A DNA stretch of 64,000 nucleotides from the NCBI GenBank assembly GCA_963751145.1, contig CAVVTJ010000007.1, positions 106,136 to 170,135 of the forward strand, in the 5' to 3' direction. The DNA comes from an uncultured Alphaproteobacteria bacterium (GTDB lineage: Bacteria; Pseudomonadota; Alphaproteobacteria; Sphingomonadales; Sphingomonadaceae). Position numbers and translations under genes: made by a program. The notes beneath the pieces were generated by a model. It saw only the letters and a list, made by a program, of their open reading frames with translations. It was not told the DNA's origin and ran no database searches. Shown here one piece after another: positions 28,289 through 62,946 of this stretch. How positions within the stretch are numbered: the first letter of the stretch is position 1; each line of letters opens with the position of its first letter.

Positions 28289-28340
28289 ACTTTTCTCCGG
28301 CATATTCACCGGGATCAGGCATGTTTTTTCGGGAAATGTA

Positions 28341-28371
28341 GGCGCTGTCCCCCTTGCGCGGGGACAGCGCC
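28341..28371. promoter_or_regulatory. 12-bp inverted repeat centred on a TTGCGC (-35-like) hexamer upstream of nuoA
   Basis: GGCGCTGTCCCC-cttgcgc-GGGGACAGCGCC. It could instead be the calB terminator. Confidence 0.4.
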
Positions 28372-28415
28372 GGGACTAGGGCGCGGGCTAACATTCAGCA
28401 AGGCGAGTCAGCCCT

Positions 28416-28790
28416 TTGATCGACCTGTCGCAATACCTGGCCGTCCTGATCTTTCTGGGGATTGCCTTCGCGCTTTCGGCGCTGTTCGTGTTCCTGCCGA
28501 TGGGCGTTGCCCGGCTGACCGGGACGCATCAGCCCAATGCCGACAAGCTCAGCGAATATGAATGCGGCTTTCCCGCCTTCGAAGAACCGCGCAGTCAGTT
28601 TGACGTGCGCTTTTATCTGGTCGCGATCCTGTTCATCGTGTTCGATCTTGAAGCTGCGTTCCTGTTCCCCTGGGCAGTGACCTTCCTCAAGCTCGGCTGG
28701 TCGGCGTGGATTACGATGATGGTGTTCATTGCCGAACTGGTGTTCGGGCTGATTTATGCATGGAAAATGGGGGCTTTGGATTGGGAATGA
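28416..28790 (+). CDS. nuoA: NADH-quinone oxidoreductase subunit A
   Basis: [25 protein letters not shown]. Confidence 0.97.
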
Positions 28791-29341
28791 GCGTTCCGGT
28801 TGATGCCCTTGGCCGCCCGCTGTGGAATGGCCCGGTAACCGCGCCCGACGCGGACTTTTTCACTGGTCTCAATGCCGAGGTCAACGACAAGGGCTTCCTC
28901 GTCGTCGGCACCGAGGAGCTGTTCCAGTGGGCCCGCACCGGCTCGCTGTGGTGGATGACCTTTGGCCTGGCTTGCTGCGCGGTCGAGATGATCCACGTCA
29001 ACATGCCGCGTTACGATATGGAACGTTTCGGCGTCGCCCCGCGTGCCTCTCCGCGCCAGAGCGACGTGATGATCGTGGCCGGCACGCTGTGCAACAAGAT
29101 GGCCCCGGCGCTGCGCAAGGTCTATGACCAGATGAGCGAGCCGAAATACGTCATCAGCATGGGCAGCTGCGCCAATGGTGGCGGCTATTACCACTACAGC
29201 TACTCGGTCGTGCGCGGGTGTGACCGGATTGTGCCGGTGGACATCTATGTGCCCGGCTGCCCCCCGACTGCTGAGGCGTTGCTCTATGGGGTGATGCAGT
29301 TGCAACGCAAAATCCGTCGGGTGGGGACGATCGAGCGATGA
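28787..29341 (+). CDS. nuoB: NADH-quinone oxidoreductase subunit B
   Basis: [24 protein letters not shown]. Start at the ATGA overlap (28787). Confidence 0.97.
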
Positions 29342-29844
29342 AGAAACTGATCACTGTTGCAGCGCTTGCAGCTGCGAGCCAGGTCCTTGCCAGCGCGCCC
29401 GCCACCTGGGAGCGCTCGGCTTCACCTGACGCGGCAGTTTCGGTGATGACCCCGTGCAGCAAGGCTGAATTTCAAACCGATGTTGAAGGCGCCGGGTTTC
29501 GACTCGTTTGCCGCAAAGGCGGCATGATTTTTGTCGCGACCAGCGGAATGGCTGGAGGAAGTGGCAAGGTAGCGACGTTTGATGATCAGCTTGCCGGTGC
29601 GCGTGAAAAACTGCCATCGAGCGAAGTTGATGAAACGCCGATGTTCGGGCATCGCGCGTTCAAGATCGTGTGCGGGGGCCGAGACGGCGTGGCATGCGTT
29701 GAGATCATCGATTGGCGCCCCGGCAGCCCGCTGATGGTGGCTGCAATCGAGGAAGGCGGTCCCGGCACTGCAACCGCGGCAGAGCTGCCTGGCGTCCTGA
29801 CGCAAGCGCGAAATTTTTACGATTCGCTTGAGGTTGCCAGGTGA
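29338..29844 (+). CDS. Hypothetical exported protein inserted between nuoB and nuoC
   Basis: Signal peptide [22 protein letters not shown] overlap with nuoB and GTGA overlap with nuoC; 4 Cys. Confidence 0.72.
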
Positions 29845-30467
29845 CCGTTTTCCACTCAGCTCCGCGTATTGCCTCAAACGAAGGCGTGCTTTCGGCACTG
29901 TCATTGGCGCTCGGCACCAAGCTGATTGGCGCCAAGGAAGAGCATGGCGAGATCGTGCTCAGCGTGGCGCGGGATCAGATCGTTCCGACGCTCAAGCTGC
30001 TGCGTGACGAGCACGAATACCAGCAGATGATGGAAATGGCCGGGGCCGATTATCCCGATCGGGCCGAGCGCTTCGAAGTTGTCTACATGCTGCTTTCGGT
30101 GACCAAGAACCACCGCATCATGGTCAAGGTTTCGGCCGCCGAGGACACCCCGGTGCCCAGCATTACCGGGCTGTGGCCCAACGCCGGCTGGCTCGAGCGC
30201 GAAGTGTTCGACATGTACGGGGTGGTGTTCGATGGCAATCCGGACCTGCGCCGGATCCTGACCGATTATGGCTTTGAAGGCCACCCGTTCCGCAAGGATT
30301 TCCCGCTGACCGGCTATGTAGAGCTGCGCTATTCGATCGAAGAGCAGCGCGTGGTTTATGAACCGGTGCAGCTGGCGCAGGACCTGCGCCAGTTCGATTT
30401 CATGAGCCCGTGGGAAGGCGCGGACTATGTCCTGCCTGGCGATGAGAAGGCGGAGGAAAAGAAGTGA
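29841..30467 (+). CDS. nuoC: NADH-quinone oxidoreductase subunit C
   Basis: [35 protein letters not shown]. Confidence 0.97.
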
Positions 30468-30487
30468 ACCGCACGCTCACCTATCTT

Positions 30488-30569
30488 CCCGCTCAGGCTG
30501 AGCCTGTCGAAGCCCCCGCGTTTGGAGCTGCCGCTGCGTGCGGGCTTCGACAGGCTCAGCCTGAGCGGG
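30488..30569. repeat. REP-like palindromic element, copy 1 (CCCGCTCAGGCTGAGCCTGTCGAAGCCC family)
   Basis: Perfect 28-bp inverted repeat with a 26-nt spacer between nuoC and nuoD; the same unit recurs near 48.7 kb and 62.9 kb. Confidence 0.9.
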
Positions 30570-30606
30570 CATTGGGTTGTGCCGCCCACCAAATGGGAGG
30601 CGGAGC

Positions 30607-31818
30607 ATGACCATGCAAATGGAACAATCGCCCACCACCGGCGACGAGGTCATCACCAATTACACGATCAACTTTGGCCCCCAGCACCCGGCTGCGCACG
30701 GTGTGCTGCGGATGGTGATGGAGTTGGACGGCGAAATTATCGAGCGGATCGATTGCCATGTCGGGCTGCTCCACCGCGGCACCGAAAAGCTGATCGAGAA
30801 CAAGACCTACCTGCAGGCGCTGCCGTACTTTGACCGACTCGACTATTGCAGCCCGCTGGCCATGGAGCACTCCTATGTGCTGGCGATCGAAAAGCTGCTC
30901 AACCTTGAGGTGCCGCTTCGCGGGCAATACCTGCGGGTGCTGTTCGCCGAGCTGACCCGGATCTGCAACCACATGCTCAACATGGGGTCGCACGTGATGG
31001 ATGTGGGCGCGATGACGCCCAACCTGTGGCTGTTCGAAGTGCGCGAGGATTGCCTCAACTTCTTTGAACGCGCCTCGGGCGCGCGCATGCACAGCGCCTG
31101 GTTCCGCCCCGGCGGGGTCCATCAGGACGTGCCGCAGGACCTGCTCGATGATCTGGGCGTGTGGCTCGATGATCGCCTGCCGCGCCTGTTCGAAGACGCG
31201 ATGAGCCTGGTGGTCGACAATCGCATTTTCAAACAGCGCAACGTCGATATCGCCGTGGTCAGCAAGGAAGATGCGCTGGCTTGGGGCTTTTCCGGCCCGA
31301 TGATCCGCGCCGCCGGGGTGGCGTGGGATCTGCGCAAGAGCCAGCCCTATGACGTTTACGACCGGATGGAGTTCGAAATCCCGGTCGGCACGCGCTCAGA
31401 TTGCTATGACCGTTTCATGGTCCGGGTTGAGGAAGTGCGCCAGTCGGCCAAGATCATGAAGCAGTGCCTGCGCGATATGCCGCAAGGTCCGGTTTCCAGC
31501 AATGATGGCAAAGTCGTCCCACCCAAGCGCGGCGAGATGAAGCAGTCGATGGAATCATTGATCCACCACTTCAAGCTCTACACCGAAGGCTTCCACGTGC
31601 CCGCCGGTGAAGTTTACGTGGCGACCGAAAGCCCCAAGGGCGAATTCGGCGTCTATCTCGTCTCGGACGGCAGCAACAAACCTTACCGCTGCAAAATCCG
31701 CCCGACCGCTTTCAGCCACCTTCAGGCGATGGATATGATGTGCAAAGGCCACATGCTGCCCGACGCGACCGCGATTCTCGGCGCGATTGATGTAGTGTTT
31801 GGGGAGTGTGACCGGTGA
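30607..31818 (+). CDS. nuoD: NADH-quinone oxidoreductase subunit D
   Basis: [38 protein letters not shown]. Start moved to 30607. Confidence 0.97.
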
Positions 31819-32243
31819 AGCGCCTAGTTCTTGCTTCGGCTTTGGCTTGCGCGATCATTGCACCGGTGGCCGCACAAGTCCCAGTCGGGGGCGTGTTGCA
31901 GATGCCAATCAATGCACGCTTAGGGTTCGCATTTATGAATCCCAAGGCCCCAGGCATTCTTGACAGCGTTTTTGCTGACAGCGCGAAGGTCATCGTGGTT
32001 GATTTCACGAAAGAAGGTCAGCCTAGGTCCCGCTTAGGTTCTGGCGCAAAGCAATCGGCTGAATTAGTTGAATATTCGGTAGCGGTCACGGGCTCGCTTG
32101 ATGAAATAGGATGCATCGATCCCGTTCCGGAGCGTTTGGTTTGCACCATGACTAACAAGTCTAAATCTGTGGAAATCGTTGCCCATCTCCAAAACGATCG
32201 GGTCGACGATGCCGTTGTCATTATCAAGAGGAAGGCCTCATAA
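31815..32243 (+). CDS. Hypothetical exported protein inserted between nuoD and nuoE
   Basis: Signal peptide [24 protein letters not shown] overlap with nuoD; stop abuts the nuoE ATG; more A/T-ending codons than the nuo genes. Confidence 0.7.
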
Positions 32244-32912
32244 ATGGCTGACCGTCATCTCGAACCCGATACCCCAGACCTGCGCGCGCGGTGGGGCTCT
32301 TTTGCGTGGTCCAAGGACAACGCCAAGCAGGCCAAAGTGATTGTCGCGCGCTATCCGGCCGGGCGGCAGCGCAGCGCGGTGATGCCGCTGCTCGATCTGG
32401 CGCAGCGTCAGGTTGGGGCGGAAACCAATACGCAGGGCTGGCTGCCGATCCCGGTGATGGAATATATCGCGGCCTATCTCGACATGCCGGTGATCCGGGT
32501 GGTCGAAGTGGCGACCTTCTATTTCCTGTACAATCTGGTGCCAGTCGGCAAATTCCACGTTCAGGTCTGCGGCACCACGCCGTGCATGCTGCGCGGGTCT
32601 GACCACATCATGGCCGCCTGCAAAAAGCGCGGGATGCAGATCGGCCACGTCAGCGACGACGGGCTATGGACGCTGACCGAAGTCGAATGCATGGGCAATT
32701 GCGCCAGCGCCCCGATGGTCCAGATCAACGACGACAATTACGAAGACCTGACGCCCGAGCGGCTCGACTCCGTGCTCGATGCGCTGGCTGCGGGCAAGGC
32801 GCCCAAGGCCGGGACGCAGGAACCGGGGCGGCACACGGTTGAGCCGCTTGGCGGGCCGACCACGCTGAAGGACATGGTCAAGGCCAACCACGATTACCGG
32901 GGGGATTGGTAA
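32244..32912 (+). CDS. nuoE: NADH-quinone oxidoreductase subunit E
   Basis: CGTTPC and VECMGNC 2Fe-2S motifs. Confidence 0.97.
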   Translation: MADRHLEPDTPDLRARWGSFAWSKDNAKQAKVIVARYPAGRQRSAVMPLLDLAQRQVGAETNTQGWLPIPVMEYIAAYLDMPVIRVVEVATFYFLYNLVPVGKFHVQVCGTTPCMLRGSDHIMAACKKRGMQIGHVSDDGLWTLTEVECMGNCASAPMVQINDDNYEDLTPERLDSVLDALAAGKAPKAGTQEPGRHTVEPLGGPTTLKDMVKANHDYRGDW

Positions 32913-32915
32913 GCC

Positions 32916-34202
32916 ATGTCACTGCAGGACAAGGACCGCATCTTCACCAACCTCTACGGCTACCAGCCGTGGACCTTGGCCGCAGCGCGCAAGCGCGGTG
33001 ACTGGGACAACACCAAGGCGCTGCTCACTAAAGGCCGCGATGGGATCATCGAGGAGATGAAGGCATCGGGGCTGCGCGGGCGCGGCGGGGCAGGGTTCCC
33101 GACCGGTCTCAAGTGGTCGTTCATGCCCAAGGAGCCGAACCCGGCGCGGCCCAGCTTCCTCGTCATTAACGCCGACGAATCTGAACCCGGTTCATGCAAG
33201 GACCGCGAAATCATCCGCCACGATCCGCACAAGCTGATCGAAGGCGCGCTGGTCGCGGGCTTCGCGATGGGCGCGCGCGCCGCCTATATCTACATCCGTG
33301 GCGAATATATCCGCGAAGCCGAGGTGCTGTTTGCGGCCGTGCAGGAGGCCTATGATGCCGGCCTGATCGGCAAGAACGCTTGCAAATCGGGCTACGACTT
33401 TGACGTGTTCGTCCACCGCGGCGCGGGCGCCTATATCTGCGGCGAAGAAACCGCGATGATCGAAAGCCTGGAAGGCAAGAAGGGCCAGCCGCGCCTCAAA
33501 CCGCCGTTTCCGGCCGGTGCAGGGCTCTATGGCTGCCCAACCACAGTTAACAACGTCGAATCAATCGCGGTGGCCCCGACCATTTTGCGGCGCGGGGCCA
33601 GCTGGTTCAGCTCGTTCGGGCGCGAGGGCAACAAGGGCACCAAGCTGTTCCAGATTTCGGGGCACGTAAACAAGCCCTGCGTCGTCGAAGAAGCGATGAG
33701 CATCCCGTTTTCGGAGCTGATCGAAAAGCACTGCGGCGGCATCACTGGCGGGAAGGACAACCTGCTGGCGGTGATCCCGGGCGGCAGTTCGGTGCCATTG
33801 GTTCCGGCTGCGGAAATCTGGGACGCACCGATGGATTTCGACGGCCTGAAAGCGGTCGGCTCAGGCCTCGGCACCGCCGCGGTGATCGTGATGGACAAGA
33901 GCACCGACATCGTCCGCGCGATCAGCCGCCTGTCCTACTTCTACAAGCACGAAAGCTGCGGCCAGTGTACCCCCTGCCGCGAAGGCACCGGGTGGATGTG
34001 GCGCGTGATGGAACGCCTGCGCACCGGCGATGCCGATGTCGAGGAAATCGACATGCTGCTCAACGTCACCAAGCAAGTCGAAGGCCACACCATCTGCGCG
34101 CTGGGTGACGCGGCGGCCTGGCCGATACAGGGCCTGATCCGGCATTTCCGGCCTGAGATCGAGCGGCGGATCGGTGAGCGCGTGCGGGAGGCGGCGGAGT
34201 GA
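32916..34202 (+). CDS. nuoF: NADH-quinone oxidoreductase subunit F
   Basis: [35 protein letters not shown]. Confidence 0.98.
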
Positions 34203-34945
34203 GGTTCGCGCTTGCATCTGCAATGGCACTGGCGACGCTCTCCACCGCCGCCAGCGCGCAGTATGAAGCGCGTTCGGGCTCGGTGGCTGAACTGCGCGAA
34301 AATACCCGTGAATATGCGCGGTGCATGGTGCTGTATCAGCATGTTGAGGCGCGCAATCTGGTGCTGTCGAACACGCCCAATGACCGGTTGGAGCGCGAAT
34401 TCGGCTCGATCTACACCACCAAGCCGCTGGCCAAGGTGATGGGCTGTGACAGGCTGGTGATCCGCGATGGCCACGCAATCATCTTGCAGCCCGATCTGCT
34501 GCGCGGCTCGCTGGCGCAGGAGCTGGTGATTGCGGACCTGAAGGTGGCGGAAGCAGACAATTTCGCAACCCGTGCGCCGCTGTCGCACTGGCAGCCCGGT
34601 ACCATGGCGGACTATGCAGCAAAGCGGCCGCTGCAAGCGGGCCCGGTCCGGCACATCACGGTCGAACAGGCCTATGCCGAAGAACTGGGCCGGGCCTGGC
34701 TCTCGCGCTATGGCGAATGCGTGGTGCGCGGCAATTCTGCGGCGTCCTATGGCTGGATCACCGCCAAGCCGGGCACCGAGGCGGAGAAAGCAGAGATCAC
34801 CGCGCTTCAACCGGTGTTCGCCTCGTGTCTGGCGCAAGGCGAGACCTTGACCTTTGGCAAGGCGGTTCTGCAAGGCGCGGTTGCAATCAATTATTACCGT
34901 TTGGCCATGGCAGCCCCGGTATCGGCAAGCGGAGTGGCGAAGTAA
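34199..34945 (+). CDS. Hypothetical exported protein with two internal Cys-pair repeats, inserted between nuoF and nuoG
   Basis: Signal peptide; YARCMV..C..LRGSLA and YGECVV..CL..LQGAVA halves; GTGA and TAATG overlaps. Confidence 0.75.
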
Positions 34946-36948
34946 TGCCCAAACTAACCGTAGACGGCGTTGAACTCGAAGTGCCGCAGGGCGCCACCGT
35001 CCTGCAGGCGTGCGAGCTGGCGGGCAAAGAAATCCCGCGGTTCTGCTACCATGAGCGCCTGTCCATCGCTGGCAATTGCCGGATGTGTCTGGTTGAAGTA
35101 GCGCCCGGGCCGCCCAAGCCGCAGGCCAGCTGCGCGCTGCCGGCCGCCGAAGGTCAGGTGATCAAGACCGACAGCGAAATGGTCAAGAAGGCGCGCGAAG
35201 GGGTGATGGAGTTTCTGCTCATCAATCACCCGCTCGATTGCCCGATCTGCGATCAAGGCGGCGAGTGTGATCTGCAGGATCAGGCGGTGGCCTATGGCCG
35301 CGGCCGCTCGCGCTATGACGAGAACAAGCGCGCGGTCACCGAAAAGTACATGGGCCCGCTGATCAAGACGATCATGACCCGCTGCATCCACTGCACCCGC
35401 TGCGTGCGGTTCAGCGAGGAAGTGGCCGGGGTGGACGAAATCGGCGCGCTCTATCGCGGCGAGAACATGCAGATCACCACCTATCTCGAAAAGGCCGCCG
35501 CCCACGAGATGAGCGCCAATGTGATCGACCTGTGCCCGGTCGGCGCGCTGACATCGCGGCCTTATGCCTTTGAAGCGCGGCCGTGGGAGCTGAAGAAGAC
35601 GCTGTCGATCGACGTGTCTGACGCTTGCGGGGCAAACATCCGGATCGACAGCCGCGGCACCGAACTGATGCGGGTGCTGCCGCGCGTCAACGATGATGTG
35701 AACGAGGAATGGATTTCCGACAAGGCGCGCTATCAGATAGATGGTCTCAGCCGCCGCCGGCTTGATAAGCCGTGGCTGCGCGTGGACGGCAAGCTGCAGG
35801 CCGCCAGCTGGGCGGAAGCTTTTGCCGCGATTGCCAAGATCAATCCGGGCAAGTCGGTCGCGGTGGTCGCGGGCGATTTGACCGACTGCGAGACGATGTT
35901 CGCGGCCAAGGCCTTGGCCGGGGCGCTGGGATCGGATCTGCTCGAAGGCCGCCAGACGGGGCTCGATTACGATTGTTCGAACCTGGCTGCGGTCAATTTC
36001 AATTCGGGCCTGGCCGGGATCGAAGAAGCTGACGCGATCCTGATCGTGGGCAGCAATGTCCGCTGGGAAGCGCCGCTGGTGCAAAGCCGCCTTCGCAAGG
36101 CAGCGCGGCGCGGGGCGAAGGTGTTTGTGGTCGGGGCGGAGTGGGACACGACCTATCCGGCCACCTTCCTTGGCACTGACCTCGCGGTGATCGACAAGCT
36201 TCCGGCCGAAGCTGACGCGGCGTTCAAAGCGGCGCAGCGTCCGGCGCTGATCCTCGGCGGGGCCGGGCTGGGCAAGGGCGCTCTCTCGGCCTGTCTGGCG
36301 CTGGCGACCAAATACAAGCTGGTGCGGGACGAGTGGAACGGATTCAACGTGCTGCACATGGCCGCTGCCCGCATGGGCGGACTGATGCTGGGCTATGCGC
36401 AAAAGGGCGGCATCGCCGATCTGGTCGCCGCCAAGCCCAAGATGCTGATTTCGCTGGGCGCGGATGAGGTGGATTACGCCAAGTTTGCGGGCTCGATGAT
36501 CGTCTATATCGGCCACCACGGTGACAAGGGCGCGCATGCCGCCGATGTGATCCTGCCGTCCGCGGCCTACAGCGAAAAGCCGGGCACTTACGTCAACACC
36601 GAAGGCCGGGTGCAGTGGGCTGACAAGGCCGTGTTCGCCCCGGGCGACGCACGTGAGGACTGGACCATCCTGCGGGCGATGGCCGATGCCCTGAAGGTTT
36701 CGGTCGGGTTCGACAGCTTCGATGCGCTCCGCTCGGAAATGGCGAAGTCAGTTCCGGCACTGGGCCGCGAAGGTCTGGCCGATTACGGCGCGCTGCCAAA
36801 AGGCAAGGCCGGGGCCAAGGGTTCAATCGAAGCCTACCCGATCAAGGATTTCTACCTCACCAACCCGATCGCCCGCGCCAGCGTGACGATGCAGCGCTGC
36901 TCGGCGGAATTGCTGCACGGTGAGAGCTTCGCGGAGGCTGCGGAATGA
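34945..36948 (+). CDS. nuoG: NADH-quinone oxidoreductase subunit G
   Basis: CYHERLSIAGNCRMC, HPLDCPICDQGGEC, CIHCTRC. Start moved to MPKLT (34945). Confidence 0.97.
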   Translation: MPKLTVDGVELEVPQGATVLQACELAGKEIPRFCYHERLSIAGNCRMCLVEVAPGPPKPQASCALPAAEGQVIKTDSEMVKKAREGVMEFLLINHPLDCPICDQGGECDLQDQAVAYGRGRSRYDENKRAVTEKYMGPLIKTIMTRCIHCTRCVRFSEEVAGVDEIGALYRGENMQITTYLEKAAAHEMSANVIDLCPVGALTSRPYAFEARPWELKKTLSIDVSDACGANIRIDSRGTELMRVLPRVNDDVNEEWISDKARYQIDGLSRRRLDKPWLRVDGKLQAASWAEAFAAIAKINPGKSVAVVAGDLTDCETMFAAKALAGALGSDLLEGRQTGLDYDCSNLAAVNFNSGLAGIEEADAILIVGSNVRWEAPLVQSRLRKAARRGAKVFVVGAEWDTTYPATFLGTDLAVIDKLPAEADAAFKAAQRPALILGGAGLGKGALSACLALATKYKLVRDEWNGFNVLHMAAARMGGLMLGYAQKGGIADLVAAKPKMLISLGADEVDYAKFAGSMIVYIGHHGDKGAHAADVILPSAAYSEKPGTYVNTEGRVQWADKAVFAPGDAREDWTILRAMADALKVSVGFDSFDALRSEMAKSVPALGREGLADYGALPKGKAGAKGSIEAYPIKDFYLTNPIARASVTMQRCSAELLHGESFAEAAE

Positions 36949-36951
36949 GCC

Positions 36952-37083
36952 ATGGATCAGATTTTCACATCGCTGTTCGAGACGCTTGTAACGATGCTGC
37001 CGAGGCCATGGAATTGGCTCGTAGGGGCGTTTTTGGTCGTTGCGCTAGTTTGCGCAATAGTTTGGGTGTTGGGATGGCTCTGA
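36952..37083 (+). CDS. Putative 43-aa single-pass membrane microprotein between nuoG and nuoH (MDQIFTSLFETLVTMLPRPWNWLVGAFLVVALVCAIVWVLGWL)
   Basis: Fills the 136-bp nuoG-nuoH gap and has a strongly hydrophobic C-terminal helix. An alternative 47-aa frame runs 36945-37088. Confidence 0.5.
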   Translation: MDQIFTSLFETLVTMLPRPWNWLVGAFLVVALVCAIVWVLGWL

Positions 37084-37084
37084 A

Positions 37085-38131
37085 ATGACCGACTTCTTCC
37101 AATCCAGCCTCGGCCTGTCCTACGAATGGTCGTGGTTCATTGCCACGATCTGCGGGATCCTGCTGATCGCGCTGCCGCTGATGCTCAGCGTGGCGATGAT
37201 CATCTATGCTGACCGCAAGATCTGGGCGGCGATGGCGCTGCGGCGCGGGCCGAACGTGGTGGGCCCGTGGGGGCTGCTGCAAAGTTTCGCGGACGGCCTG
37301 AAGGTGTTCCTGCAGGAAACCATCGTCCCCAGTGCCTCGAACAAAGTGCTGTTCCTGCTCGCACCGATCATCACCTTTACCGTGGCCTTGATGGCCTGGG
37401 CGGTGATCCCGTTCAATGGCCGCGCGATCCTCGCCGATATCAACGTCGGGCTACTCTATGTCCTCGCGATCTCATCGCTGGGGGTTTACGGCACGGTGAT
37501 CGCGGGCTGGTCAAGCAATTCGAAGTATCCGTTCTTCTCGGCGATGCGCGCTTCGGCGCAGATGATTTCGTACGAAGTGTCGATCGGGTTCATCGTGATC
37601 TGCGTGGTGATGTACGCCGGCACGTTCAACATGAACGGCATCGTTCTGGCGCAGCGCGGGCATGGCTTCGGGATCGTCAACGCCTTCGGGTTCAACCTGC
37701 TGCTGTTCCCGATGGCGGTGATGTTCCTGATTTCGGGCATGGCCGAAACCGGCCGCGCGCCGTTCGATCTGACCGAGGCGGAGAGCGAGCTCGTCGCTGG
37801 GTACCAGACCGAATATTCGAGCATGAGCTTCGCGCTCTACTGGCTCGGCGAATATGCCAACGTGCTCTTGATGTGCGCGCTAAACGCCACGCTGTTCTGG
37901 GGCGGCTGGCTGCCGCCGATCGAATGGGCACCGCTCTACTGGATCCCGGGCTGGATCTGGCTGTTCGCCAAGATCTTTTTCTTCTTCTTCGTGTTCAGCT
38001 GGGTCAAGGCGACCGTCCCGCGCTACCGCTATGACCAGCTGATGCGGCTGGGCTGGAAGGTGTTCCTGCCGGTTTCGCTGGGGTTTGTGGTGCTGGTGAG
38101 TGGTTGGTTGATGTGGAGGCAGGGAGCATGA
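37085..38131 (+). CDS. nuoH: NADH-quinone oxidoreductase subunit H
   Basis: RRGPNVVG, ADGLK, RAPFDLTEAESELVAGY, PRYRYDQLM. Confidence 0.97.
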   Translation: MTDFFQSSLGLSYEWSWFIATICGILLIALPLMLSVAMIIYADRKIWAAMALRRGPNVVGPWGLLQSFADGLKVFLQETIVPSASNKVLFLLAPIITFTVALMAWAVIPFNGRAILADINVGLLYVLAISSLGVYGTVIAGWSSNSKYPFFSAMRASAQMISYEVSIGFIVICVVMYAGTFNMNGIVLAQRGHGFGIVNAFGFNLLLFPMAVMFLISGMAETGRAPFDLTEAESELVAGYQTEYSSMSFALYWLGEYANVLLMCALNATLFWGGWLPPIEWAPLYWIPGWIWLFAKIFFFFFVFSWVKATVPRYRYDQLMRLGWKVFLPVSLGFVVLVSGWLMWRQGA

Positions 38132-38658
38132 AGCGATTTGCCACTTTTCTAAGTGTAGGATTGGCGCTGGCGGCGCCTTCAACTATGCAAGCGAAAAATT
38201 CACCATCCAAGCCTGTCGTTGAGCATATTGATTTAGATAAGCTTGATGTCGAATTTGAGCTAGTTTGCTACAAGCAAGATACAGATCCGCCGGGTCCTGC
38301 TATAACATCATTTTTTGTTCACCATATAGTGGGCGAAACTTCGACAAAGCGGTTTGTAGAACTTAGCTTCTACAATAAGGATCTACCACCCAACTTCGTT
38401 TTGACTAACCCGATTCAGCGTGCAGACCACATACTTGGAAGTGGTTTGGGGACATATGTACTCGTTGGAAGGGGCCCAGCTAATAGTCTGGATCGCAAGC
38501 TCGTTTCTGAGAAAGTGTCGTTCAAACTCGTGATTTCATACACGCCGGAGAATTATCTTCGGGCTGACCTCACAGTTACCAGCAAGGAGGTCTCGTTGAA
38601 GCGCAAGGGCTGTCATAAAGCACCACCGCGACCGATCTCAATGGAACCCAAACAATGA
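38128..38658 (+). CDS. Hypothetical exported protein, low GC, inserted between nuoH and nuoI
   Basis: Signal peptide [26 protein letters not shown] overlaps at both ends; visibly AT-rich; 2 Cys. Confidence 0.72.
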
Positions 38659-39140
38659 CCGCCGCACAGCTCATCAAATCGTTTACCCTGTGGGAGTTCG
38701 TCAAGGCGCATTGGCTGACCTTGCAGTACTTCTTCAAGCCCAAGGCCACGATCAACTATCCGTTCGAGAAAAACCCGCTGAGCCCGCGGTTTCGCGGCGA
38801 GCATGCGCTGCGGCGCTATGCCAATGGCGAAGAACGTTGCATTGCCTGCAAGCTGTGCGAAGCGGTCTGCCCGGCGCAGGCGATCACGATCGAGGCCGAG
38901 CCGCGCGACGATGGCAGCCGCCGGACCACACGCTATGACATCGACATGACCAAATGCATCTTCTGCGGCTTTTGTCAGGAAGCTTGCCCGGTCGATGCGA
39001 TCGTCGAAGGGCCGAACTTCGAATACGCGACCGAAACGCGCGAAGAACTGCTTTACGACAAGGCCAAACTGCTGGCGAACGGGGACAAGTGGGAGCGGGC
39101 ACTGGCCGCGAACCTTGAAGCCGATGCGCCGTATCGTTAG
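38655..39140 (+). CDS. nuoI: NADH-quinone oxidoreductase subunit I
   Basis: [12 protein letters not shown] and [12 protein letters not shown]. Confidence 0.98.
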
Positions 39141-39169
39141 GGGCCCGGGGATGAACGCGATGCTCGGTA

Positions 39170-39293
39170 AAATACCTCCCCGGAACGGGGAGGGGGACCG
39201 CTCCGAAGGAGTGGTGGAGGGGTCAGTGATCGGTGGGTATCACCCCTCCGTCAGCGCTGCGCGCTGCCACCTCCCCGTTACGGGGAGGTATTT
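39170..39293. repeat. MITE/REP-like multi-hairpin element between nuoI and nuoJ
   Basis: 12-bp terminal inverted repeat AAATACCTCCCC/GGGGAGGTATTT; CCTCCCC-N5-GGGGAGG hairpins at both ends; internal GGAGGGGT/ACCCCTCC pairing and two further small hairpins. Confidence 0.8.
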
Positions 39294-39299
39294 GGTGTC

Positions 39300-39917
39300 A
39301 TGATCACGGCTCTCGCCTTTTACCTGTTCGCGGCCTTCACCGTCATTTCCGGCGCAGTGGCGATCCTGGCCCGCAACCCGGTCCATTCGGTGCTGTGGCT
39401 GATCCTGGCGTTCTTCAACGCGGCCGGGCTGATGGTGCTGCTTGGCACCGAGTTCATCGCGATGCTGCTGGTGATCGTTTACGTCGGCGCGGTGGCGGTG
39501 TTGTTCCTGTTCGTGGTGATGATGCTCAACGTCGATTTCGCGCAGGTGCGTACTGGGCTGATCCGCAATTTTCCGCTTGGCTTGGTGCTCGCGGCGGTCT
39601 TGCTGGGTGAAATCGTGATCGGGCTTGGCGCGGTGGGCCAGGGCGGGATCAAGCTGGGCGTGGCCGATGGCAGCGCCGCGCCGGTGGCCGGGCAGAGCAA
39701 TATCGAGGCGATCGGGATGCTGCTGTACGGCAAGTATCTGTTTCTGTTCGAAGCGGCGGGGATCCTGCTGCTGGTCGCCATGGTTGGCGCGATCGTGCTG
39801 ACTCACCGCAAGCGCGAGGGCGTGCGCGGCCAATCGGTCCCGCGCCAGAACGCGCGCAGGCCGGACGAGGCGACGGTCAATGTGTCGCCCGAAGTGGGCA
39901 AGGGGGTTGAGCTGTGA
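39300..39917 (+). CDS. nuoJ: NADH-quinone oxidoreductase subunit J
   Basis: [27 protein letters not shown]. Confidence 0.97.
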
Positions 39918-40222
39918 CCATCGGCATCGAACATTACGTCACGGTCAGCTCGATCCTGTTCGTGCTGGGCGTGCTGGGGATCTTCCTCAACCGCAAGAAC
40001 GTGATCACCATCCTGATCTCGATCGAGCTGATCCTGCTGGCGGTGAACATCAATATGGTCGCCTTCAGCGCCTTTCTGCATGACCTGACCGGGCAGATTT
40101 TCGCGATGTTCGTGCTGACCGTGGCGGCGGGCGAGGCGGCGATTGGCCTCGCCATTCTGGTGCTCTATTTCCGTGACCGCGGCACCATCGCGGTTGACGA
40201 TGTCAGCCATCTGAAGGGGTGA
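39914..40222 (+). CDS. nuoK: NADH-quinone oxidoreductase subunit K
   Basis: [20 protein letters not shown]. Confidence 0.97.
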
Positions 40223-40229
40223 GCAGCCA

Positions 40230-42248
40230 GTGACTTCGATCCACTTCATAGTATTTCTGCCGCTGCTGGCCGCGATTGTTGGCGGGCTGGGCAACCGTGC
40301 GCTGGGCAACACCGTGGTCAAGGCGATCACCACCGGCGCGCTGTTCATTGCCGCTGCGCTGAGCTGGCCGATTTTCTTCTCGTTCCTGGGCGGACATGCC
40401 GAAGCCTCCGTGGTGCCAGTGCTGCATTGGGTTCAATCCGGCAGCCTGGCGTTTGACTGGGCCTTGCGGGTTGATACGCTGACGGCAGTGATGCTGGTGG
40501 TGGTCACCACAGTGTCCGCGCTGGTTCACCTCTACTCGTGGGGGTACATGGACGAAGACCCCGATCAGCCGCGGTTTTTCGCTTACCTGAGCCTGTTCAC
40601 GTTCGCGATGCTGATGCTGGTGACCGCCGACAACCTGGTCCAGATGTTCTTTGGCTGGGAAGGGGTGGGGCTCGCCTCATACCTGCTGATCGGGTTCTGG
40701 TTCCGCAAGCCTTCGGCCAGCGCCGCTGCGATCAAGGCCTTCGTGGTCAACCGGGTCGGCGATCTGGGCTTCATGCTGGGTATTTTCGGCGTGTTCCTGG
40801 TGTTCAACACCGTTTCGATCCCGGAAATTCTGGTCCGCGCGCCATCTATGGCCGGATCGACGATTCACTTCATGGGCCTGCAATGGGATACGATGACGAT
40901 CCTGTGCGTGCTGCTGTTCATCGGCGCGATGGGCAAATCGGCGCAGCTGGGGCTGCACACCTGGTTGCCGGATGCGATGGAGGGGCCCACGCCCGTCTCG
41001 GCGCTGATCCACGCCGCCACCATGGTCACCGCGGGCGTGTTCATGGTCTGCCGCCTCTCGCCGCTGTTCGCGGTTAGCCCGGACGCGATGGCGGTGGTGA
41101 CTTACGTCGGCGCAGCAACGCTGTTCTTCGCCGCGACGATCGGCACGACGCAGTGGGATATCAAGCGGGTGATCGCCTACTCCACCTGCTCGCAGCTGGG
41201 CTACATGTTCGTCGCGGCGGGCGTTGGCGCACCGGGTGCGGCGATGTTCCACCTGTTCACCCACGCCTTCTTCAAGGCGCTGCTGTTCCTGGGCGCGGGT
41301 TCTGTGATCCATGCGATGCACCATGAGCAGGACATGCGGTTCTATGGCGGCCTCAGAAAACACATCCCGCTGACCTTCTGGGCGATGATGGCCGGAACCT
41401 TGGCGATCACCGGCATTGGCATTGTCGATGTGTTCGGCTTTGCCGGGTTCTATTCCAAGGATTCGATCCTTGAAGCCGCATATGGCGCGCATAGCGCCAG
41501 CGGCTCGATGGGTTTCTGGCTAGGGATTACCGCCGCACTGCTGACCAGCTTCTATTCGTGGCGGCTGATGTTCCTGACGTTTTACGGAAAGCCGCGCTGG
41601 GAGCAGTCCGAGCACATCCAGCATGCGGTGCACGATGATCATCACGGCCACGCGCACGGTCATTCCAGCGATGGGACCGCCGGGTATCACCCCCACGAAA
41701 GCCCGCTGTCGATGCTGATCCCGCTCGGCTTGCTGAGCCTCGGCGCGGTGTTTGCCGGGTTCGCGTTCCATCACGAATTTATCAGCGAAGGCGGCGGTGA
41801 ATTCTGGCGCGGCTCGGTGGCCTTCAGCGAAGAGCTGATCCACCACATGCACGAGGTGCCGCTGTGGGTGAAATGGGCCCCGTTCGCGGTGATGCTGACC
41901 GGATTTGCGGTCGCCTGGTACGCCTATATCAAGAACCCCGGCCTGCCGGCCAAGTTCGCCGGCGCGATCAAGCCGCTCTACACTTTCGTCTACAACAAGT
42001 GGTACTTCGACGAGCTCTACGACCGGATCTTCGTGCGGCCGGCCTTCTGGCTGGGCAACGCGTTCTGGAAGCTCGGCGATGTGGGCCTGATCGATCGGTT
42101 CGGCCCCAACGGCTCTGCCTGGGCGGTGCTGCAGGGCAGCCGCGCGGCGGCCAGGCTGCAGACGGGTTACCTCTATTCCTACGCTCTGGTCATGCTGCTG
42201 GGGCTTACCGGCGCGATCAGCTGGGTCTTCTGGCAGGCGGTGCATTGA
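40230..42248 (+). CDS. nuoL: NADH-quinone oxidoreductase subunit L
   Basis: [46 protein letters not shown]. Confidence 0.97.
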
Positions 42249-42249
42249 G

Positions 42250-43779
42250 ATGAATGGCTTTCCGATCCTTTCCTTGATGCTGGCCGTGCCGCTGGTGGCG
42301 GCGCTGGCTTGCCTGGTGGTCGATGCCAAGGTGGCGCGCACGCTGGCGCTGGCTGCGACGCTGATCGATTTTGTGCTGGGCGCGGTGCTGTGGCTCAATT
42401 TCGATGTCGGCGGCGCGCAGTGGCAGTTCCAGGAGAGCAAGCAGTTGTTCGCCGGGTTTGACTGGAAGCTTGGGATCGATGGCATCGCGCTCGTGCTGAT
42501 CGAACTGTCGGTGTTCCTGATGCCGATCTGCATCCTTGCCAGCAATGTGATCGACAAGCGCGTCGGTGAATATATGGCGGCGTTCCTGCTGATGGAAACG
42601 CTGATGATTGGCGTGTTCGCGGCGCAGGATCTGTTCCTGTTCTACATCATGTTCGAAGCCGGGCTGATTCCGATGTACCTGATCATCGGGGTGTGGGGCG
42701 GGGCGAACCGGATTTACGCCAGCTACAAATTCTTCCTCTACACCCTGCTCGGCTCGGTGCTGATGCTCATCGCGATGATCTGGATGGCCAAGGAAGCCGG
42801 TACCACTGACATCCCGACGCTGATGGCCTATGATTTCCCGGCGGCAGCGCAAAAGTGGCTGTGGCTGGCATTCTTCGCCAGCTTTGCGGTGAAGATGCCG
42901 ATGTGGCCGGTCCACACCTGGCTGCCCGATGCCCACGTGCAGGCGCCCACCGCAGGTTCGGTGATCCTGGCGGGCGTCTTGCTCAAGATGGGCGGCTATG
43001 GCTTCATCCGCTTTTCACTGCCGATGTTCCCGGCGGCAAGCGCCGACTTTGCCTGGCTGGTGTTCGCACTGTCGATGGTGGCGGTGGTCTATACCAGTCT
43101 GGTCGCGCTGGTGCAGGACGACATGAAGAAGCTGATCGCTTATTCGAGCGTGGCGCACATGGCGATCGTGACAGCGGGGATGTTTGCGTTCAACACCCAG
43201 GGGCTCGAAGGTTCGATCGTGGTTATGCTCAGCCATGGTCTGGTCTCGGCCGCGCTGTTCCTGTGCGTCGGCGTGATTTATGACCGGCTGCACACGCGCG
43301 AGATCAACCGCTACGGCGGGCTGTCGATCAACATGCCGAAGTACGCGCTGTTCTTCATGCTGTTCACCATGGCTTCGGTCGGTTTGCCCGGCACCAGCGG
43401 TTTCGTGGGTGAATTCCTCAGCATGGCGGGGGCCTATCAGGCGTCCAGCTGGCTGGCCTTCGTTACCGGCACCGGAATTATCCTCGGCGCGGGCTACATG
43501 CTCTACCTCTACCGCCGGATCGCATTTGGCGAGCAGAAGAATGCCGATGCCGCCGCCATGCCCGATCTCAACCTACGCGAATGGGTGATGCTCGCGCCGA
43601 TCGCTGCGGCGGTGCTGTGGATGGGGATCTACCCCGAAAGCTTCCTCGCTCCGATCCACAGTGACGTCCGCTTCATCGAAGCGCGATTGGCGGCAACCCT
43701 GCCACCGGGCGACGCCAATCTGACTATCGATCAACGCAAGATCACGACAACCGACGTACAGCAACAGGGAGCGCACTGA
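42250..43779 (+). CDS. nuoM: NADH-quinone oxidoreductase subunit M
   Basis: VKMPMWPVHTWLPDAHVQAPT, KKLIAYSSVAHM, LPGTSGFVGE. Confidence 0.97.
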   Translation: MNGFPILSLMLAVPLVAALACLVVDAKVARTLALAATLIDFVLGAVLWLNFDVGGAQWQFQESKQLFAGFDWKLGIDGIALVLIELSVFLMPICILASNVIDKRVGEYMAAFLLMETLMIGVFAAQDLFLFYIMFEAGLIPMYLIIGVWGGANRIYASYKFFLYTLLGSVLMLIAMIWMAKEAGTTDIPTLMAYDFPAAAQKWLWLAFFASFAVKMPMWPVHTWLPDAHVQAPTAGSVILAGVLLKMGGYGFIRFSLPMFPAASADFAWLVFALSMVAVVYTSLVALVQDDMKKLIAYSSVAHMAIVTAGMFAFNTQGLEGSIVVMLSHGLVSAALFLCVGVIYDRLHTREINRYGGLSINMPKYALFFMLFTMASVGLPGTSGFVGEFLSMAGAYQASSWLAFVTGTGIILGAGYMLYLYRRIAFGEQKNADAAAMPDLNLREWVMLAPIAAAVLWMGIYPESFLAPIHSDVRFIEARLAATLPPGDANLTIDQRKITTTDVQQQGAH

Positions 43780-45245
43780 TGGACTGGGCACAGTCACTGC
43801 GCATCGTTGCGCCCGAGGAATTGCTGAGCACGGTCGGCATAATTCTGCTGGTCATCTCAGCCTGGGGGCAGGGCCGCAAGGACGCGCGCGGGATCACCTG
43901 GGTCGCGGTCCTGACGCTGTTCATCGCCGCACTGATGACCGCCCCGGCGCTGTGCAACGGGGTAAGCGGGGAAGCGGCTTTGGCCTTTGGCGGGCTGTTT
44001 TCGGGCGATGCCTTTGCCGCCTTCACCAAGCTGCTGATCTATATCTCGGCCGGCGCAGCCTTGCTCATCGCCCCCGCGTTCTTCGAACGCTACGGCGCAT
44101 ACCGCAGCGAATATCCGGTGCTGGTGCTGTTCGCGGTGCTGGGCATGGGGATCATGGTTTCGGCGACTAACCTGTTGACGCTCTACGTCGGGCTCGAGCT
44201 TAACTCGCTATCGGCCTATGTCCTCGCCGCCTTCCTGAAGCCGGATGAACGCTCGGCCGAAGCCGGGCTCAAGTATTTCGTTCTCGGCGCGCTGGCCAGC
44301 GGGATCCTGCTGTTCGGGATGAGCCTGACTTACGGGTTCACCGGCTCAATCAATTTCGCCGCAATCTCTATCGCGCTGCAGGGCGGGGTGACCACGGGCG
44401 CGCTGTTCGGGATCACTTTTGTGCTGGCCGGTCTGGCGTTCAAGATCAGCGCCGTGCCGTTCCATATGTGGACCCCCGACGTTTACGAAGGCGCGCCCAC
44501 TCCGGTGACCACGCTGTTCGCCTCTGCGCCCAAGGTTGCGGCGCTGGCGCTGACCGTGCGGGTGGCGATCGAAGCGTTTGGCAGCCAGACCGAAATGTGG
44601 CGGCCGATCGTGATCGTCGCTTCGCTGGCCTCGGTTCTGGTCGGGGCGTTGGGAGCAATCGGGCAAAGCAATATCAAACGGCTGCTGGCCTATTCCTCGA
44701 TCAACAATGTCGGCTTCATTCTGCTCGGCCTCGCCGCCGCGACGCGTGAGGGGGTCAGCGCGATGCTGGTTTACCTGGCGATCTATGTGCCGATGACGAT
44801 TGGCGGGTTTGTCGCCGTGCTGATGCTCAAGGACAAGGATGGGCGGCATCTCGAAGGGATTTCAGACCTGGCAGGTCTGTCGCGCCATCGCCCGATGCTG
44901 GCACTTGGGCTGGGCTCGATCATGTTCTCGATGGCCGGGATCCCGTTCCTGTTCGGGTTCTGGGGCAAATTCGTGGTGTTCCAGGCCGCGGTTGGCGCGG
45001 GGCTGGTCTGGGTTGCCGCAGTGGCCGCAGTGGGCAGCGTGATCGGGGCATTCTACTACCTCAAGGTGGTCAAGGTGATGTATTTCGATGAGCCCGCTGG
45101 CACCGTGCAGGGCAAGAGCGACATGGTCCACGAATGGCTGCTTGCAGCGTGCGCGGTGTTCGTATCGCCGCTGGGCTATCTGGCCACCAAGGCGCTGGCG
45201 GCCTTCACCCTGACGGCTGCCATGGTGCTGTTCCCGCCGGTTTGA
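43779..45245 (+). CDS. nuoN: NADH-quinone oxidoreductase subunit N
   Basis: EAGLKYFVLG, FKISAVPFHMWTPDVYEGAP, KRLLAYSSI. Confidence 0.97.
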   Translation: MDWAQSLRIVAPEELLSTVGIILLVISAWGQGRKDARGITWVAVLTLFIAALMTAPALCNGVSGEAALAFGGLFSGDAFAAFTKLLIYISAGAALLIAPAFFERYGAYRSEYPVLVLFAVLGMGIMVSATNLLTLYVGLELNSLSAYVLAAFLKPDERSAEAGLKYFVLGALASGILLFGMSLTYGFTGSINFAAISIALQGGVTTGALFGITFVLAGLAFKISAVPFHMWTPDVYEGAPTPVTTLFASAPKVAALALTVRVAIEAFGSQTEMWRPIVIVASLASVLVGALGAIGQSNIKRLLAYSSINNVGFILLGLAAATREGVSAMLVYLAIYVPMTIGGFVAVLMLKDKDGRHLEGISDLAGLSRHRPMLALGLGSIMFSMAGIPFLFGFWGKFVVFQAAVGAGLVWVAAVAAVGSVIGAFYYLKVVKVMYFDEPAGTVQGKSDMVHEWLLAACAVFVSPLGYLATKALAAFTLTAAMVLFPPV

Positions 45246-48662: not shown

Positions 48663-48733
48663 AGCGGAAAGGGGGCTGACCCTAGGTTCCGCCAACTTTA
48701 GCCAATCACAAACCCCGGCTCAAAACGAGGGTG

Positions 48734-48836
48734 CTTCGACAGGCTCAGCATGAGCGGACAAACCAGGGAAGGCTAAATTTCCTCGCAGGCAACCTTACGC
48801 CACCTCTAAATCCCGCTCAGCCTGAGCCTGTCGAAG
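48734..48836. repeat. REP-like palindromic element, copy 2
   Basis: CTTCGACAGGCTCAGCATGAGCGG ... CCGCTCAGCCTGAGCCTGTCGAAG: 24-bp arms with two mismatches, opposite arm order to copy 1, between convergent genes. Confidence 0.85.
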
Positions 48837-48873
48837 GCCCCTCGGTTTACGGTTAGGGCGCTTAAGCAAAGCC

Positions 48874-62800: not shown

Positions 62801-62849
62801 TGCCTGTGCCCTAGCCACTGGGTGAAGGCTAGTCGAGAGCTTTGCGCGG

Positions 62850-62932: not shown

Positions 62933-62946
62933 ACAGCGTGAGAACG

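Follow-up and report, generated by a model that had tools for sequence, protein, structure and literature searches.

Genes and repeats at the expanded junctions of a sphingomonad nuo operon are spanned by linked reading frames

The nuo operon and its seven expanded junctions

We analysed a stretch of 64,000 nucleotides (nt; positions 106,136 to 170,135 of contig CAVVTJ010000007.1, assembly GCA_963751145.1), hereafter the window, from an uncultured Novosphingobium-like sphingomonad, which carries a complete 14-gene nuoA-N operon for respiratory complex I on the plus strand at 28416-45245; its NuoF is 94% identical to NuoF of Novosphingobium metagenome-assembled genomes. The operon is expanded at seven junctions between core genes, with gaps of 499 nt at B/C, 139 nt at C/D, 425 nt at D/E, 742 nt at F/G, 136 nt at G/H, 523 nt at H/I and 159 nt at I/J, compared to compact gaps of -4 nt at A/B, 3 nt at E/F, -4 nt at J/K and 7 nt at K/L. 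These gap sizes confirm that the seven expansions listed in a preceding sequence-only reading of this DNA are real, and no open reading frame (ORF) within 28416-45245 is left unaccounted for. Six of the seven inserts are bridged by reading frames from the upstream stop to the downstream start, and the seventh, at I/J, is covered by a frame starting inside nuoI.

Four junctions hold long protein-coding inserts, here called ins1 to ins4, all on the plus strand and all identified from their translations and the junction sequences: ins1 (29338-29844, B/C, 168 amino acids (aa)), ins2 (31815-32243, D/E, 142 aa), ins3 (34199-34945, F/G, 248 aa) and ins4 (38128-38658, H/I, 176 aa). As the sequence-only reading had described, each begins on the stop of the preceding core gene, as ATGA at 29338 (ins1) and 38128 (ins4) and as GTGA at 31815 (ins2) and 34199 (ins3), and each ends on or next to the following start: the stop of ins1 overlaps the GTG of nuoC as GTGA at 29841, ins2 ends in TAA-ATG at 32241-32246 with nuoE beginning at the very next base, the TAA of ins3 shares one base with the ATG of nuoG in TAATG at 34943-34947, and ins4 overlaps nuoI as ATGA at 38655. 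None of the coding inserts has any non-coding ends. Promoter- and terminator-like sites were no commoner than in shuffled sequence in a consensus scan, and because of the 4-nt overlaps the inserts are very likely co-transcribed with the nuo genes.

The mature parts of ins1 to ins4 contain 4, 2, 4 and 2 cysteines, respectively (Cys47 and Cys162 in ins4), preceded by predicted Sec leaders with a basic and then hydrophobic N-terminus, an Ala-X-Ala-like site and no second hydrophobic segment, as judged by a simple heuristic. The four proteins of 142-248 aa show no similarity to each other in pairwise sequence searches, so that the earlier description of them as mutually unrelated holds, together with its cysteine counts and, by the heuristic, its leaders. 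The predicted folds of ins1 and ins3, the two that were modelled, differ, and none of the four has an above-threshold match in Pfam, NCBIfam, PADLOC or PHROGs. Being ORFs unrelated to the 14 core subunits, located on the same strand between nuo genes, they are of the type known as unidentified reading frames (URFs). Their GC content at third codon positions (GC3) is 0.61 for ins1, 0.545 for ins2, 0.74 for ins3 and 0.454 for ins4 (overall GC of ins4 0.47), compared to 0.74-0.87 for the nuo genes and a mean of 0.735 (standard deviation 0.067) for 51 genes of the window; ins2 and ins4 clearly stand out, ins1 is a borderline case and ins3 resembles the host genes, in agreement with the earlier statement that at least two inserts are low in GC. 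For the three inserts with DNA available from a relative, the ratio of non-synonymous to synonymous substitution rates (dN/dS) is 0.085 for ins2 (versus locus L087; compared loci carry the letter L and a number), 0.135-0.154 for ins3 and 0.115 for ins4; these three are genes under purifying selection. We read the four long inserts as real genes for small, predicted exported proteins with paired cysteines and not as one kind of recent foreign cargo.

The core genes, all on the plus strand, were assigned from their translations, supported by comparison with relatives for nuoD, nuoG, nuoH and nuoI. The genes nuoA (28416-28790) and nuoB (28787-29341, overlapping nuoA as ATGA) match gene calls with Pfam Oxidored_q4/Oxidored_q6 in the related locus L088 at 95-97% identity, and NuoC (29841-30467) is 88% identical to its L088 counterpart. 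They are followed by nuoD (30607-31818, 403 aa), nuoE (32244-32912), nuoF (32916-34202, 3 nt after nuoE, with no insert at E/F), nuoG (34945-36948, 667 aa counted from the ATG at 34945), nuoH (37085-38131) and nuoI (38655-39140), and by nuoJ (39300-39917), nuoK (39914-40222), nuoL (40230-42248), nuoM (42250-43779) and nuoN (43779-45245), the junctions from nuoJ to nuoN being compact.

Resident families and changeable slots

We compared the operon with those of its closest relatives. In L087, the closest genome, NuoD, NuoE and NuoH are 96%, 95% and 97% identical to the proteins of the window, ins2 87% and ins3 86%, and the H/I gene encodes a predicted exported protein of 159 aa to which ins4 shows no detectable similarity. 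The nucleotide match between the window and L087 ends at 38133 and begins again at 38654, i.e. at the nuoH stop and the nuoI start, and nuoH has 93% nucleotide identity compared to 86-90% elsewhere, which fits a recombination mosaic. L088 (NuoB 97%, NuoD 96%) is devoid of ins1, has a different exported protein at D/E and an ins3 of 74% identity, and carries at H/I a gene for a cytoplasmic DUF1643 protein that overlaps each neighbour by 4 nt. In L005 (NuoH 93%) the D/E and H/I proteins are different again, ins3 is only 43% identical, and an ORF of 168 aa at C/D and a membrane protein of 89 aa at G/H are carried in addition. All three relatives have a spacer of the repetitive extragenic palindromic (REP) type of 184-199 nt at E/F, compared to 3 nt in the window. 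Thus, the contents of D/E and H/I are replaced within the time in which the core genes diverge by a few per cent, and F/G is stable.

A census of 80 Sphingomonadales nuo operons, plus closer relatives found via the inserts, showed gaps of at least 300 nt at D/E in 44/76 operons, at F/G in 44/79, at E/F in 18/79 and at H/I in 14/69, and more rarely at C/D (8/71), B/C (2/71) and G/H (2/72); at A/B, I/J, J/K and K/L no such gap occurred among the 80 operons. Junction expansion is therefore a property of the order, concentrated at particular junctions. ORFs of at least 100 aa form 17 families at D/E and 16 at H/I (17 ORFs). The usual resident of D/E is a well-conserved cytoplasmic SnoaL_2 protein (27-28 loci), besides a coiled-coil protein of 76 aa, a two-helix membrane protein, a cupin and at least 14 singletons; the usual content of E/F is a membrane peptide of 50-60 aa or a REP. 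The cytoplasmic families identified by Pfam in junctions are SnoaL_2, cupin and DUF1643, the cupin ORFs not always being tightly coupled and cupins of one family being found at both C/D and D/E. The sequence-only reading had described exclusively exported cargo, which does not extend to the order, where cytoplasmic and membrane proteins occupy the junctions as well. The data support that nuo junctions behave as permissive slots with turnover, and counting insert turnover per junction, as that reading had proposed, separates D/E and H/I, which change, from B/C and F/G, to which the ins1 and ins3 families are tied.

Two further observations concern junctions without a protein-coding insert of this kind in the window. 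At E/F, 43 loci (e.g. L046:9822-10004 and L037:9852-10004) encode two families of predicted two-helix membrane peptides, typically of 48-64 aa and in most listed loci tightly coupled at both ends, which have no counterpart in the window with its E/F gap of 3 nt; they are candidates for small membrane proteins with a link to complex I. At G/H, two distant sphingomonad operons carry a gene for a retropepsin-like aspartic protease of 133 aa (L095:5729-6130 and L076:14335-14736), which in L095 overlaps both neighbours.

For the ins1 family, an exhaustive search of 1.84 billion proteins returned 33 cluster representatives of 99-190 aa with leaders, in which Cys40 and Cys58 are invariant. Two alignments of the family contain no stretch conserved enough for scanning metagenomes, and a metagenome scan with P0076 for additional contexts gave no match; exact look-ups later succeeded. 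In six of the six contexts examined the gene lies at the nuoB/nuoC junction with 4-nt overlaps on both sides, which speaks against ins1 as a recent foreign capture. The AlphaFold2 (AF2) model of ins1 shows an alpha+beta fold with a predicted local distance difference test score (pLDDT) of 90.8. Its top match in the Protein Data Bank (PDB) in a fold search is PsbP (8z9d_P; E 6.1e-3, probability 0.99, template modelling (TM) score 0.44/0.41), a weak match, and further matches are DcrB (6e8a; E 0.068, TM 0.35-0.39) and LpqN (6e5d). We define a Mog1/PsbP-like fold by a TM score above ~0.5 to PsbP, DcrB or an LpqN-type alpha-beta sandwich, and because the overall TM scores are 0.30-0.44 such a fold for ins1 is a lead, not a result; a profile search of the family against PDB sequences yielded no meaningful match.

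The ins3 family comprises 57 F/G ORFs in the 80 loci and makes up 47/55 of the F/G ORFs of at least 100 aa, which, together with the host-like GC3, contradicts a recent foreign capture also for ins3. It has 65 database relatives ranging from 87% to 28% identity, all unnamed and without Pfam match, and Cys42, Cys174 and Cys210 are invariant. Two similar Y-x-x-C-V-V motifs in ins3 hint at an internal duplication. The AF2 model is all-helical (pLDDT 86.7) and has no fold match in the PDB (Foldseek; best E 0.68, TM up to 0.2), and a profile search of the family against PDB sequences likewise gave no meaningful match. Members reside at F/G in L087, L088, L095 and all 57 locus copies. A distant member of 28% identity (L094:3001-3804) lies alone outside any nuo operon, surrounded by unnamed genes with a transposase-like fragment (DUF772) nearby; the ins3 family can therefore exist as a free-standing gene. 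As the ins1 and ins3 families recur at the same junction across the Sphingomonadales, both are old residents, the families of which have undergone many losses.

ins2 and ins4 are fast-evolving orphans of low GC3 in the two most changeable slots, D/E and H/I. Among 5.8 billion proteins ins2 has three relatives, two of which could be placed (L085 and L087), both in the D/E slot, and its identity is 70%, compared to ~90% for NuoD and NuoE. In the same set of proteins ins4 has a single relative, located in the H/I slot, with 61% identity compared to 89% for NuoH and 92-94% for NuoI, and a tblastn search of 72,556 plasmids with ins4 gave no match. A donor context was found for neither, all placed relatives residing in the same slot. 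Membership of ins2 in a group of exported D/E proteins (L005/L016/L052) was dropped at an hhalign probability of 2%. The low GC of ins4 raised the possibility of an assembly chimera, which was ruled out because an independent Logan contig spans nuoH-ins4-nuoI with zero mismatch and the arrangement recurs in four other metagenome contigs.

The H/I proteins share an architecture. We tabulated the 17 H/I ORFs of at least 100 aa, with the DUF1643 gene as an eighteenth entry, and 15 of the 17 have a hydrophobic leader, a first cysteine at residue 21-47 and a last cysteine 6-14 residues from the C-terminus. The two cysteines are spaced by 101-120 residues in proteins of ~140-180 aa, usually with a G-x-C at the second and, two residues ahead of the first, an aromatic or hydrophobic side chain. 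ins4 has the leader and cysteine spacing of the other H/I ORFs, and five further H/I cassettes from metagenomes fit this two-cysteine architecture. In all of the 15 loci compared the H/I ORF has a lower GC3 than the nuo genes that accompany it (median difference 0.29). A multiple alignment of the H/I ORFs gives only 10-21% identity, and with the denser sampling one of the five metagenome cassettes joined a former singleton (L012-L151, E 2e-21). Because leader and cysteine architecture are common to proteins without sequence similarity, we infer that they form one ancient, hyper-divergent family and not random cargo. Two double-length H/I proteins (L048:8120-8866, 248 aa; L055:14375-15148, 257 aa) contain four cysteines as two two-cysteine modules, which suggests a tandem duplication of the cassette.

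Repeat spacers and bridging frames

The remaining expanded junctions of the window hold short spacers. The C/D spacer (30464-30610, plus strand) contains a REP-like palindrome at 30488-30569 with 33-nt arms of 94% complementarity, has a fold energy of -0.70 kcal per nt and is traversed by a bridging ORF of 48 codons running from a GTGA on the nuoC stop to an ATGA on the nuoD start. Two further copies of this palindrome family with the core CCGCTCAGGCTGAGCCTGTCGAAGCCC are present in the window, one at 48718-48848, past the RNase J gene and between convergent genes, the other at 62845-62935, between trpD-like and trpC-like genes of the minus strand, this single case having no bridging ORF. The only Rfam match of the spacers, between an sRNA family and the C/D palindrome, is sub-threshold (40 bits versus a gathering score of 97). 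The I/J spacer (39141-39299, strand not assigned) holds an element resembling a miniature inverted-repeat transposable element (MITE) with 27-nt arms at 39170-39196 and 39267-39293 that are 93% complementary, each arm containing a CCTCCCCG...CGGGGAGG hairpin. This hairpin motif occurs twice in the window, compared to 0.06 expected occurrences, and also in loci L011, L024, L027, L047, L076 and L087; the L087 copy was confirmed in the G/H spacer, the positions in the other loci being judged from coordinates. The ORF covering the I/J spacer (39115-39303) begins 26 nt inside nuoI, not on the nuoI stop, and ends in an ATGA on the nuoJ start. Both the C/D and the I/J spacer are REP/MITE-type repeats, being intergenic and combining a palindrome or inverted repeat with copies dispersed elsewhere. 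In the 136-nt G/H spacer (36945-37088, plus strand) we recognised no repeat; it is bridged by an ORF of 47 codons with ATGA at both ends. An alternative hydrophobic, helix-like ORF of 43 aa (MDQIFTSLFETLVTMLPRPWNWLVGAFLVVALVCAIVWVLGWL) lies in the G/H spacer at 36952-37083 in a frame different from that of the bridging ORF, ends 1 nt before nuoH and has no homologue in the compared loci.

We assessed bridging for 295 gaps of at least 40 nt in 81 operons, using 100 shuffles per spacer. A single ORF leading from the upstream xTGA to the next start was present in 69/125 gaps of 40-200 nt (shuffle mean 17.1, maximum 23), in 61/148 gaps of 200-800 nt (shuffle mean 1.1) and in 0/22 gaps of 800-4000 nt (shuffle mean 0.0). 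Chains of coupled ORFs covered 117/125, 143/148 and 20/22 gaps of these three size classes, compared to 53, 32 and 0.4 in the shuffles. Among the strongly folded REP-like spacers 38/57 were bridged, compared to a mean of 11.6 in the shuffles. Coverage of the spacer by one ORF ending on the next start was found at C/D in 10/11, G/H in 27/28, H/I in 14/15, J/K in 6/6, K/L in 9/9, B/C in 8/11 and I/J in 13/21 cases, at all seven junctions far above the shuffles. The H/I junction has a gap of -4 nt, i.e. an ATGA overlap, in 45/69 loci; where it is occupied, the ATGA or GTGA is kept at the left end and remade at the right end in nearly all cases, and the comparison of empty and occupied H/I junctions showed no duplication or scar beyond the ATGA.

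The operon is flanked by thiolase and aldehyde dehydrogenase genes upstream and by birA, coaX and the RNase J gene downstream. In L088 a gene of 401 aa without Pfam match (L088:3259-4464) lies between the aldehyde dehydrogenase gene and nuoA, to which only a 127-nt spacer corresponds in the window (28289-28415); the upstream edge of the operon is therefore variable too. On the minus strand of the window, at 10668-13373, we further identified a gene for an RNase E/G-family protein of 901 aa, the 3' part of which is repetitive (repeats at 10757-11056 and 11074-11289), with three diverged direct repeats of ~72 nt, about 111-117 nt apart, plus short acidic-type repeats; the C-terminal region looks repetitive and is probably disordered.

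A proposed ribosome relay, its rivals and known systems

We consider it probable, though by no means settled, that the junctions of the nuo operon tolerate inserted DNA provided that translation stays linked between the core genes. In a compact operon with many ATGA overlaps a ribosome ending one gene would restart on the next because the overlap joins stop and start. An insert at such a junction would sever this link unless a frame leads across it, beginning on the stop before it and reaching the start after it, and selection on the essential downstream genes would remove inserts that break the relay. Such selection for an unbroken ribosome relay is what we infer because coupled ORFs cover nearly all inserts, also the REP-like ones, much more often than in the shuffles. 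According to this model the filter would act on a mix of old residents (ins1, ins3), fast slot genes (ins2, ins4) and mobile repeats (C/D, I/J). The short bridging frames of the REP/MITE-like elements probably matter as frames only, lineages have probably exchanged versions of the H/I gene through homologous recombination within the conserved flanking nuoH and nuoI genes, and occasionally an unrelated gene such as the DUF1643 gene has taken the H/I slot. The products of the long inserts are predicted to be synthesised along with complex I and exported to the periplasm, where an accessory role for complex I is possible.

The sequence-only reading had proposed instead that foreign exported genes are captured at the overlap junctions of a strong essential operon, possibly by microhomology or REP-linked nucleases, gain expression there and resemble orphan periplasmic immunity or inhibitor proteins in their profile. 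We regard this as unlikely, although several observations favour it: ins2 and ins4 are GC3 outliers (0.545 and 0.454 versus 0.735, standard deviation 0.067) and nearly without relatives, the slot content is unlike between close relatives, REP/MITE elements are frequent in nuo junctions, and the junctions contain members of existing families (DUF1643, cupin and SnoaL_2 by Pfam, VOC- and retropepsin-like proteins by reading of the sequences), with one cupin family at both C/D and D/E; the ins3-family member outside nuo makes a free-standing source possible. However, the ins1 and ins3 families are each tied to one junction across the order, with host-like GC3 in ins3, all located relatives of ins2 and ins4 reside in the same slot, the common architecture of the H/I proteins is not expected from independent captures, and the order-wide cargo includes cytoplasmic and membrane proteins. 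A mechanism involving microhomology or REP-linked nucleases finds no evidence beyond the ATGA itself, since the coding inserts have no non-coding ends to hold an attC site, a REP or a scar and the empty and occupied H/I junctions differ by no duplication past the ATGA. The idea of immunity or inhibitor cargo fares no better: none of the loci has a toxin gene next to an insert, the neighbours on both sides always being nuo genes in the contexts seen for the inserts, PADLOC, PHROGs and the plasmid search gave nothing significant, and the fold searches with the ins1 and ins3 models returned no inhibitor fold. Of the gene-capture platform, the permissive junctions, the turnover at D/E and H/I and the preserved coupling stand; recent foreign origin of all four inserts does not.

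The inserts could also encode genuine lineage-specific accessory subunits or assembly factors that bind sphingomonad complex I on its periplasmic side and have to be produced together with the core subunits. This is favoured by their fixed positions, their tight coupling and the purifying selection on them, and also by the best match of the ins1 model to PsbP, an extrinsic lumenal subunit of photosystem II, and to the periplasmic DcrB, and lineage-specific supernumerary subunits do exist in bacteria, e.g. the methyltransferase-like subunit of Paracoccus (PMC11522691). We nevertheless judge it improbable in view of the patchy distribution (ins1-type genes in ~2/71 species, H/I genes in 14/69), a non-synonymous evolution ~3-4 times faster than that of the flanking core subunits, the H/I slot being able to hold a cytoplasmic DUF1643 gene and one ins3-family member residing outside nuo; the PsbP match is weak (TM 0.44, E 6e-3) and of a fold common in periplasmic proteins, and the solved Paracoccus complex I, with three eukaryote-type accessory subunits and a methyltransferase-like one, has no periplasmic accessory subunit (PMC11522691). 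A specific version of this idea, to which we give a rather small chance, would have sphingomonads carry periplasmic, disulfide-bonded complex I accessory proteins at fixed junctions, PsbP-like at B/C, helical at F/G and hyper-variable with two cysteines at H/I, as an independent parallel to the subunits that mitochondrial complex I and chloroplast NDH carry on their outer face; the extreme diversity at H/I would in that case stem from diversifying selection acting on an exposed portion of the respiratory machinery. Least credible by far is that the long inserts are non-functional, being relay frames or very young genes kept open for ribosome passage. The short REP and spacer ORFs fit this, as do ins2 and ins4 as orphans of low GC3. 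Against it, the dN/dS values of 0.085-0.154 indicate amino-acid selection and largely refute it for ins2, ins3 and ins4, the ins1 and ins3 families have invariant cysteines and motifs, the AF2 models of ins1 and ins3 are confident, and an open frame of 176 codons in DNA of 47% GC is unlikely by chance.

Several points weigh against the relay model itself and against the reading of the H/I proteins as one family. The spacers at D/E, E/F and F/G are often covered by at least two ORFs, and the lenient chain test has a high null; the shuffle null ignores the kinship of the loci, so the counts are not independent events; and at E/F many of the short bridged spacers consist not of repeats but of conserved genes encoding small membrane proteins. 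The census spans nuo operons only, and nuo need not be special. The common ancestry of the H/I proteins is drawn from their architecture and from no sequence statistic: a phmmer all-versus-all search of the mature parts at E<10 linked only the window with L081 and later L012 with L151. The synonymous divergence (dS) of ins4 is 2.6, a saturated value, compared to 0.48 in the flanks, and such a high dS would equally be expected from foreign origin, weak codon bias or old alleles. Export of the junction proteins is predicted by the heuristic, not by a trained predictor. The sequence words of the window are nearly complete in one sediment metagenome DNA run only, no RNA run holds them, and the organism is known from this sediment metagenome alone.

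If the relay holds, any DNA, even a selfish repeat, can persist in an essential coupled operon given an open frame across it. This would explain the recurring annotation of 'hypothetical proteins' made of translated REP sequence in such operons and would make coupling testable by simple genetics. Very fast-evolving exported proteins lie beside highly conserved genes at H/I and D/E, slots that offer a natural system for studying orphan-gene evolution and allele swapping via the flanks. We know of no periplasmic accessory subunit of any bacterial complex I, and if any junction protein binds complex I it would be the first one known to us.

Intercalated ORFs as a kind are already known, since ORFs interspersed with nuo genes have long been described for Rhodobacter capsulatus and Paracoccus denitrificans, in which ORFs unrelated to core subunits 'intermix' with the canonical genes of the nuo and nqo operons, respectively (PMC4758237), and urf7 is part of an alphaproteobacterial nuo/nqo cluster (PMC9036352). 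These URFs are, like the inserts of the window, ORFs on the same strand between nuo genes of an alphaproteobacterium, and we liken them by position, not by sequence. The order-wide census of 81 operons, the junction-specific families with two fast-turnover slots and the bridging rule were not found in the open-access literature searched and appear new.

The junctions resemble integron platforms in that varied promoterless genes occupy a fixed site behind an upstream promoter with a content varying between relatives. They differ in the absence of an integrase, attI and attC, which the sequence-only reading had also remarked: no intI with attI was found, the operon neighbours being the thiolase, aldehyde dehydrogenase, birA, coaX and RNase J genes, and the 3' ends of the inserts have no attC, there being no non-coding 3' end and no shared element in the repeat search. 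In addition, the ins1 and ins3 families stay at their own junctions, apart from the one ins3 member outside nuo. The palindromic C/D and I/J spacers resemble REP/MITE repeats in their recurring copies and their compatibility with translation. Rickettsia palindromic elements are in-frame palindromic insertions within genes; the repeat of the window differs by lying between genes, where at C/D a separate short ORF overlaps both neighbours and the trpD/trpC copy is unbridged. The compact -4 overlaps are those of ATGA termination-reinitiation coupling, and each insert remakes the overlap or contact at both ends; the difference is that coupling, here read from sequence alone, appears to be passed through inserted ORFs apparently unrelated in function. 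Extrinsic subunits on the outer face of energy-converting membrane complexes offer a last comparison. Chloroplast NDH has a PsbP-like protein among its lumenal subunits, and disulfide-bonded subunits occur on the equivalent, intermembrane-space side of mitochondrial complex I. The proteins of the window differ from these by a weak match (TM 0.44), a patchy distribution and fast evolution, and resemble them in the PsbP match of ins1, the predicted export, the paired cysteines and their being encoded within nuo.

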